The notes: generated by a model from the sequence alone, not told the origin. Numbered from the stretch's first letter, positions 57,527 through 58,048 are shown. The stretch: 64,000 nt of DNA from Escherichia coli (GCF_030013595.1 NZ_CP122768.1); one strand, 5' to 3'. Translations and numbers: made by a program.

Positions 57527-57889
57527 AATCTATTCGCCTTATATATGTCTGGAGGTTTTGAGGATGATGATTAATTATTATCGCCAGAACGAAATGTGCA
57601 CGAAAAATTGCTATAAGAATTGTGTCACTTTTATCATTGTGATATGACCAGTTCGTCATTAATCTCATGATCGTTTAAATACTACCGCCAAATCATGCAA
57701 CGAACTTTGCTGGATTCAGTTTATGCTGCTGTAAATCCGCTCGCAGTAAACCTTTCAGACGCTCCGTGATGTTATCAGTTGTTCTTTAAGCGTTTTGCTG
57801 GTGTACTCACTACAAACGAATTGCGAATCGAATCAATGTGAAACGGAAAGGTACAATCTCCCTTTTTTTAGTGTTAACATCGCTCAACC

Positions 57890-58048
57890 GGGTGGAAGGT
57901 GAGAGGTTAATGTCTTTCATTTGTGTACCTGATTGCGAACCAATTTAGCATTTGTTGGCTAGATGGTTTCGCAATGAACTGTTAATAAACAAATTTTTCT
58001 TTGTATGTGATCTTTCGTGTGGGTCACCACTGCAAATAAGGATATAAA
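57890..58048 (+). promoter_or_regulatory. thrS leader / translational operator region (approximate)
   Basis: Position immediately 5' of the thrS ATG; the thrS operator with tRNA-Thr anticodon-arm mimics is established; boundaries not resolved here. Confidence 0.4.

Follow-up and report, generated by a model that had tools for sequence, protein, structure and literature searches.

The intergenic region considered here lies between two divergent genes of Escherichia coli, within a window of 64,000 nucleotides that represents the whole stretch of DNA analysed (GCF_030013595.1, NZ_CP122768.1). To its left, the minus strand carries espL1, also known as arpB (55628-57526), an intact gene for a type III effector of the ShET2/EspL2 family that encodes 632 amino acids and has a GC content of 0.39. 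To its right, thrS starts on the plus strand at position 58049, according to both the ORF list and the RefSeq annotation. The original prediction had described the interval between them, 57527-58048, as an unusually long and AT-rich spacer of 522 bp, and this description proved accurate: the ORF list and the annotation agree on its limits, it is the longest of the 64 intergenic gaps in the window (median 71 bp, next longest 445 bp), and its GC content of 0.377, against 0.496 for the window, falls in the lowest 2.7% of all 522-bp stretches. The ORF list also bears out the expectation that the spacer would hold no ORF of 60 or more amino acids apart from one overlapping thrS, an antisense ORF of 106 amino acids (57959-58279); the next longest ORF in the spacer has 59 amino acids. 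The sequence from 57400 to 58150 matches that of E. coli strain 2012C-4221 at 100%, and the RefSeq annotation of this strain shows espL1 and thrS with no feature annotated between them. The counterpart gap in K-12 (1,802,571-1,803,093), where arpB is a pseudogene, measures 523 bp and likewise contains no annotated feature. A search with 57400-58150 found the region in 5,425 of 5,426 complete E. coli genomes.

The spacer is very probably made up of two unrelated pieces of DNA, joined at around 57781-57833, and this degree of confidence covers the whole of the explanation favoured here: the two-part origin, the thrS cassette, the island flank, and the attachment site described below. The left piece, a polymorphic flank proximal to espL1 (57527-57780), was delimited by polymorphism and by the limits of homology. 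Among ten diverse strains, variable sites occur at 8-15 per 100 bp from the 5' end of espL1 up to 57780, with 33 variable positions in the left part itself, a density equal to that of espL1. The boundary of constraint at 57780/57781 is sharp, and just three variable sites are found in the 268 bp of 57781-58048 among ten E. coli strains. In the larger genome collection, the left 304 bp are 95-99% identical in 4,992 genomes, and the right 218 bp of the spacer are at least 99% identical in 5,418 of 5,425 E. coli genomes. The spacer would be long because a foreign gene came with its own upstream DNA beside an already long leader, and not on account of any extra gene inside it.

The limits of homology were drawn from a cross-genus comparison with the thrS loci of 80 other species representatives, covering a range of genera. 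Over these 80 loci, no homology to the spacer was seen to the left of 57823-57836, and many genera align from about 58000 onward only. None of the left part was found in the other genera sampled, in E. albertii, or in the Escherichia genome L004, and EspL1 has no tblastn match in any of the 80 other thrS loci. On the other side of espL1 lies yniD (55354-55461), the gene of a 35-aa membrane protein, and there homology to L004 stops at 55520. These limits enclose a lineage-specific island consisting of espL1 and its flanks (55521-57832), about 2.3 kb long and with 38.7% GC, between yniD and thrS. In L004, Citrobacter, Lelliottia, Kluyvera, and Enterobacter, yniD directly adjoins thrS, as located by tblastn, and the ancestral order would therefore be ydiY, yniD, thrS, with yniD as the ancestral divergent neighbour of thrS. 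Judged by these homology limits, the left part belongs to an AT-rich island gained by horizontal transfer, of which it forms the 5' flank. This flank should contain the 5' UTR and the promoter of espL1, and its approximately 250 bp would evolve without detectable constraint, holding at most these two elements. Genome L004 itself (SCPM-O-B-8794, labelled E. coli) has a thrS gene with 93.8% nucleotide identity, carries no espL1, and shows a Citrobacter-type leader; it probably represents another Escherichia lineage.

The region upstream of yniD (55462-55627) is today bordered by the 3' end of espL1; the insertion of the island would thus also have changed the upstream sequence of yniD. espL1 is frameshifted, truncated, or interrupted by internal stops in K-12 and in five of the eight other strains sampled, which suggests that the gene is decaying across the species. 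Variable DNA next to thrS has been described elsewhere: a different island, SL1263-66, occupies this position in Salmonella (PMC5122947), and variable regions bordered by thrS are known from Photorhabdus and Xenorhabdus (PMC3091717).

Several promoter-like sites lie in the left part. Genomic SELEX placed a peak of RpoD holoenzyme in the spacer, with promoter hexamers predicted by motif in both directions (PMC3946193). The arpB promoter predicted in that study occupies 57610-57637 on the minus strand (ATGATA-16-TATAGC here, with TATAAC in K-12), and a consensus scan gives a promoter-like site on the plus strand at 57608-57637 (TTGCTA-18-TATCAT). The two sites face each other and have their hexamers in common, and K-12 differs there at one base, 57611. 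A further promoter, directed toward thrS, was predicted at 57653-57681 on the plus strand (TCGTCA-17-TAAAAT in K-12; PMC3946193). In a promoter scan, promoter-like sites were no more numerous than in shuffled sequence.

AT-rich acquired DNA is the usual target of H-NS, and an H-NS-bound silencing region extending over arpB had been among the original suggestions. The left part together with espL1, or even the whole spacer, may be coated by H-NS, which would silence espL1 and spurious promoters; this reading, to which somewhat less than an even chance is given, is compatible with the two-part origin of the spacer. It draws on the composition of the island, with 38.7% GC in a background of 49.6%, on the restriction of the island to one lineage, and on the promoter-like sites facing each other at 57608-57637. 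The island has the properties of xenogeneic DNA, being both richer in AT than the genome and gained by horizontal transfer. However, the in vitro genomic SELEX table marks H-NS sites in many spacers and none in the one between thrS and arpB (PMC3946193), and the H-NS nucleation motif TCGATAAATT has a single weak match in the spacer, with two mismatches, which does not discriminate.

The right part of the spacer (57781-58048, plus strand) is the control region of thrS, comprising the promoter, the transcription start, the leader, and operator domains 4 to 1. It is homologous across Enterobacterales from about 57833 onward, and K-12 is identical to the window over 57764-58092. The core promoter (57833-57886, plus strand) includes a T-tract (57863-57869) and an extended -10 element, TGtTAACAT (57872-57880), which is kept as TGTTACCAT or TGTTACTAT in E. 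albertii, Salmonella, Superficieibacter, and phage copies. This element is placed 7 nt upstream of position -162, or 57887, which we take to be the point where thrS transcription begins, and we infer a start site at about that position. A published construct whose transcription begins at G(-159), equivalent to 57890, is consistent with a start at -162 (PMC3936740).

Counted from this assumed start, the 5' leader of thrS has 162 nt (57887-58048, plus strand) and opens with a 5' hairpin (57889-57931). A leader sequence of 174 nt folds into this hairpin, a domain-4 hairpin, and a domain-2 hairpin, with a folding z of -3.77; the single hairpins have z values of -2.66, -5.03, and -2.93, respectively. 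An Rfam scan of 56500-59000 found no family for the thrS leader. In an avibactam-resistant K-12 mutant, IS2 was found 145-150 bp upstream of thrS (PMC12323667). This site, at about 57899 (K-12 position 1,802,720), falls inside the 5' hairpin of the leader, 12 nt past the presumed start.

The translational autoregulation of thrS by threonyl-tRNA synthetase (ThrRS) is a classical system and is taken here from the literature (PMC3858243, PMC3936740), where ThrRS has been described to bind the operator in competition with the 30S subunit (PMC3858243). Operator domain 4 (57932-57976, plus strand) is a second hairpin resembling an anticodon arm, formed by an inverted repeat at 57932-57975, and a leader alignment shows the same type of domain 4 in E. 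albertii, Salmonella, Cedecea, Lelliottia, and others. Domain 3 (57977-58000, plus strand), positioned after PMC3936740, is a single-stranded, U-rich segment of 24 nt that constitutes the upstream half of the split ribosome-binding site; in the minimum-energy fold it is unpaired except for a weak 4-bp stem. It is followed by domain 2 (58001-58035, plus strand), the hairpin mimicking the anticodon arm of tRNA-Thr, with the CGU mimic at 58016-58018, which corresponds to the published domain 2 spanning -48 to -14 after the 24-nt single-stranded domain 3 (PMC3936740). Domain 1 (58037-58051, plus strand) contains the Shine-Dalgarno sequence UAAGGA (58037-58042) and the thrS AUG (58049-58051), in invariant columns of the alignment. 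ThrRS binding to domains 4 and 2 would block the split ribosome-binding site, made up of domain 3 and the Shine-Dalgarno sequence with the AUG.

The predicted presence of the thrS promoter and operator in the spacer is upheld by two lines of evidence. First, the published operator mutations map exactly: with -1 at 58048, the mutated bases of PMC3936740 fall on G(-32) at 58017 within CGU, G(-46) at 58003, U(-49) at 58000, and A(-13) at 58036. Second, the domain-2 hairpin covaries. In an alignment of 37 Enterobacterales, 96.9% of the cells of its stem are paired and compensatory changes occur in 7 of the 13 pairs, whereas the same structure slid by 1-3 columns as a control pairs in just 35-49% of cells.

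Immediately upstream of the core promoter lies an invariant block of 52 bp (57781-57832; -106 to -55 from the thrS transcription start). It is present without any change in 5,307 of 5,423 genomes (98%), while the adjoining 57729-57780 is exact in 457 of 5,426 (8%), and it contains no variable site among ten E. coli strains. The block has no homologue in the 80 thrS loci of other species representatives, is missing from both the phage-borne cassette and the cross-genus cassette, and shows no signal of RNA structure (folding z of +0.8 and -0.15). Its invariance is left unexplained by the two-part model, and the simplest guess is that it acts as an upstream promoter element. A search for a Fis-like site in 57781-57860 gave no match, and the count of the degenerate motif over the window equals the shuffled expectation.

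The operator also contains a site for phage integration, which, like the two-part origin of the spacer, had not been foreseen in the original prediction. Judged by the junctions found in occupied genomes, the 22 bp at 57999-58020 (CTTTGTATGTGATCTTTCGTGT) are the attB core of prophages with a P4-type tyrosine integrase, and the site is empty in this window. The core ends in the anticodon-like loop of domain 2, just past the CGU mimic. In the population searches, about 75 genomes showed a second copy of the right part alone, and in about 71 complete E. coli genomes a phage end and a variant leader lie directly upstream of thrS. Both states of the site occur in E. coli, with approximately 5,350 genomes empty and 71 occupied. 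In the occupied genomes, a defective DLP12-like lambdoid prophage of about 18 kb is found between the spacer and thrS. Its genes include int, emrE, ybcK to ybcO, rusA, Q, tail-fibre genes, and a gene for a KAP-family P-loop NTPase, the latter being the last prophage gene before thrS (strain 2452, locus L094, 1618-20735). At attL of strain 2452, the native sequence continues to 58020 and is followed by phage DNA, with the integrase gene some 180 bp away; at attR, the phage-borne copy starts at the equivalent of 57833 and matches the host from 57999. Since the sequence is native up to 58020 on one side and identical to the host from 57999 on the other, the common core is 57999-58020. The integrase holds the Pfam domains Arm-DNA-bind_3 and Phage_integrase, and for this reason it is assigned to the P4 type.

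The same arrangement is found in a free phage. The Salmonella phage vB_SosS_Oslo carries at 26060-26238 (attP) a segment of 179 bp homologous to the thrS promoter and leader, a copy of the Salmonella type, directly upstream (about 180 bp) of an integrase gene whose product is 75% identical to the E. coli one. The homology of Oslo to the Salmonella thrS leader ends with a Salmonella-specific variant of the core, TTGCGTAT, and the junction lies at the same base in the Oslo attP and in Salmonella prophage ends. In IMG/VR, one E. coli and two Salmonella prophage ends (attL) have the same junction. In the E. coli lysogens, the cassette supplied by the phage matches that of E. coli at 76% identity and that of E. 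albertii at 87%. Genes similar to umuD and umuC lie immediately before attP and the integrase gene in Oslo (locus L095, 1368-4571). No published description of an attachment site in the thrS leader was found in the searchable literature.

Because attP brings along a thrS promoter and leader, integration would swap the control region of thrS. Everything upstream of the domain-2 loop would be exchanged, with attP supplying a promoter, domains 4 and 3, and the 5' half of domain 2. In the lysogen, transcription of thrS would start from the phage promoter and run through domains 4 and 3 of the phage version and a domain 2 restored exactly, while the native control copy would be left 18 kb away, beside espL1. 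The usual core of a tyrosine recombinase consists of inverted arms flanking the overlap, and the strand-exchange overlap is here probably the loop at about 58014-58020, between the inverted arms of the stem. In strain FG92-1 (locus L093, 2840-21504), the integrase gene and the native copy of the promoter and leader (equivalent to 57670-58020) are missing, with IS1 at the edge of the deletion, which leaves thrS with a phage-derived control region only. The junction on the thrS side in PSS-10 is identical to that of FG92-1, and both strains appear to show a later, decayed stage of the occupied site. The E. coli lysogens carry one defective prophage, with about 99% identity, and may thus reflect a single old integration.

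The likeness of this site to integration in the anticodon loop of a tRNA gene is an analogy only. The nearest relatives of the integrase in phage collections, with 37-48% identity, include enzymes of mEp, HK140, Sf101, and Stx phages, of which at least some presumably target the protein-coding gene sbcB. A descent of the integrase from enzymes targeting tRNA-Thr is not supported by these relatives.

The control region shows a further pattern when compared across Enterobacterales. Over -216 to -51, identity to E. coli is bimodal (0.58-0.71 versus 0.47-0.54) and uncoupled from the identity of the thrS coding sequence, with a shuffled background of 0.505 (sd 0.018). The E. coli-type group comprises E. 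albertii, Salmonella, Lelliottia, Cedecea, Superficieibacter, Phytobacter, and Siccibacter, at 0.60-0.71 and with thrS nucleotide identities of 82-94%. At the level of the shuffled background are Escherichia L004 (0.52 over -216 to -51, thrS 93.8%) and four Citrobacter species (0.49-0.53, thrS 88-90%). In both groups, the segment from -50 to -1 stays 82-100% identical. Two unrelated sequence types of domain 4 and promoter, CCAATTTAGCAATTGTTGG and ATTTCGCAGAGTGAAGCGG, can be distinguished in columns 60-110 of the alignment of 37 Enterobacterales. The domain-4 types form a mosaic within families, for instance setting Dickeya apart from Pectobacterium and Yersinia apart from Serratia, and dividing two Enterobacter species.

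Tentatively, and with odds clearly on the low side, the thrS promoter-operator cassette can be viewed as a cis-regulatory module swapped by phages, through repeated integration and prophage decay, with espL1 as a fossil effector gene. The bimodal identity and the island boundary at about -54 fit such repeated cassette replacement. It would explain the unrelated cassettes in close relatives, the E. coli type in distant genera, and the constant position, about -54, at which lineage-specific islands adjoin the cassette; espL1 would be what is left of the right end of an old lambdoid prophage that came in through this site. Functional constraint alone, however, could also explain a conservation that starts at domain 2. 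A search for a fossil attL near yniD found no remnant of the thrS leader elsewhere in the window. No relatives of the integrase were found within the 5-kb flanks of thrS in the loci of other species, a search that is uninformative because the integrase gene sits at the far end of the prophage.

The phage junctions also bear on another account of the length of the spacer, according to which a second promoter far upstream, near 57653-57681, would give thrS an extended 5' UTR with a leader of about 360 nt. The hexamers TCGTCA-17-TAAAAT were indeed chosen as the thrS promoter under the SELEX peak (PMC3946193), but their -10 is altered in this strain by a 1-bp deletion, as seen in the alignment with K-12, and their position in the polymorphic zone makes a conserved function doubtful. 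Furthermore, the replacing phage cassette in the lysogens extends no further upstream than the equivalent of 57833, and the conserved extended -10 sits at 57872-57880. A far-upstream promoter is thus improbable as the reason for the long spacer, which is better accounted for by island DNA beside a known leader.

The room for an additional small gene or sRNA that had been seen in the spacer does not appear to be used: the roughly 250 bp concerned are specific to E. coli, polymorphic, and unstructured, with neither a terminator nor an Rfam match, and their ORFs are broken or neutral. An independent sRNA in the left part is very unlikely, although weak or condition-specific transcription may still occur there. 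In its favour, RNA polymerase holoenzyme binds the spacer in vitro (PMC3946193) and promoter-like hexamers are present on both strands. Yet the left part is as polymorphic as espL1, is not conserved beyond E. coli, and lacks a folding signal on either strand (z of -0.8 and -1.4), and a scan of the spacer found no terminator-like site. The features of an sRNA gene, its own promoter and terminator together with conserved sequence or structure, were not found in the left part. Rfam matches in an E-value scan of 56500-59000 were limited to two at chance level, snoU13 and Ysr209.

A small protein encoded by the left part has the slightest chance of all, since its best candidate, an ORF of 27-29 amino acids (57558-57647, plus strand), although intact in ten of ten E. 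coli strains compared and preceded by a well-spaced GGAGG (57551-57555) 8 nt upstream of an internal ATG at 57564, shows six nonsynonymous against two synonymous changes with loss of two of its three cysteines, has its GGAGG mutated to GGAGA in three of the ten strains, and finds no homologue outside E. coli in the 80 loci. Nor do other ORFs fare better: a 24-aa ORF at 57695 has its ATG in this strain only, with ACG in the other nine, and ORFs of 59 and 20 amino acids are broken in several strains. Those of the right part are intact only because the DNA there is invariant, and, on inspection of the alignments, E. albertii has not kept them. Neither purifying selection nor a conserved ribosome-binding site was found for the ORFs of the spacer.

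The spacer itself is ordinary, a known long leader beside leftover island DNA with no support for a new gene. The thrS operator and the variable region between ydiY and thrS were already known. The attachment site in the operator adds a new case to those in which an element integrates at the 5' end of a gene and restores what it displaces; it is unusual in that a whole regulatory cassette is restored. On this evidence, the entire promoter and autoregulatory operator of an essential aminoacyl-tRNA synthetase gene can be replaced by a phage version that is only 76% identical. The replaced thrS control in about 1% of sequenced E. coli would constitute a natural test of how much of the operator is needed, and the attachment site would explain the hot spot for foreign DNA upstream of thrS in Escherichia, Salmonella, and probably other Enterobacterales.

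Compared with known systems, the left part and espL1 resemble the xenogeneic islands found between ydiY and thrS, such as SL1263-66 of Salmonella (PMC5122947), in having a low-GC, lineage-specific gene, often a pseudogene, with the same neighbours. Unlike these islands, the cargo here is an effector gene of the ShET2/EspL2 family, and the right edge coincides with the start of the phage-borne copies of the thrS cassette. The right part corresponds to the E. coli thrS operator studied by Springer, Romby, and colleagues: locus and sequence are the same, and domains 1-4, CGU, the split ribosome-binding site, the Shine-Dalgarno sequence, and the AUG are as published. The operator is unchanged with respect to the published one; what is added is its near-invariance in 5,400 genomes, the upstream block at 57781-57832, and its use as a phage site.

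As for the attachment site, it can be compared with integration at the 5' end of genes, as carried out by dusA-specific integrases (PMC4482086), and with P4-type integration in tRNA genes. The common features are an integrase gene beside attP, a short identical core located within a hairpin-forming inverted repeat, and an element that carries a copy of the host sequence it displaces and thereby preserves function. In contrast to the dusA and tRNA sites, the target at thrS is an operator in an mRNA leader that mimics the anticodon arm of a tRNA, and the restored part is a complete promoter with operator domains, 76% identical to the native one.
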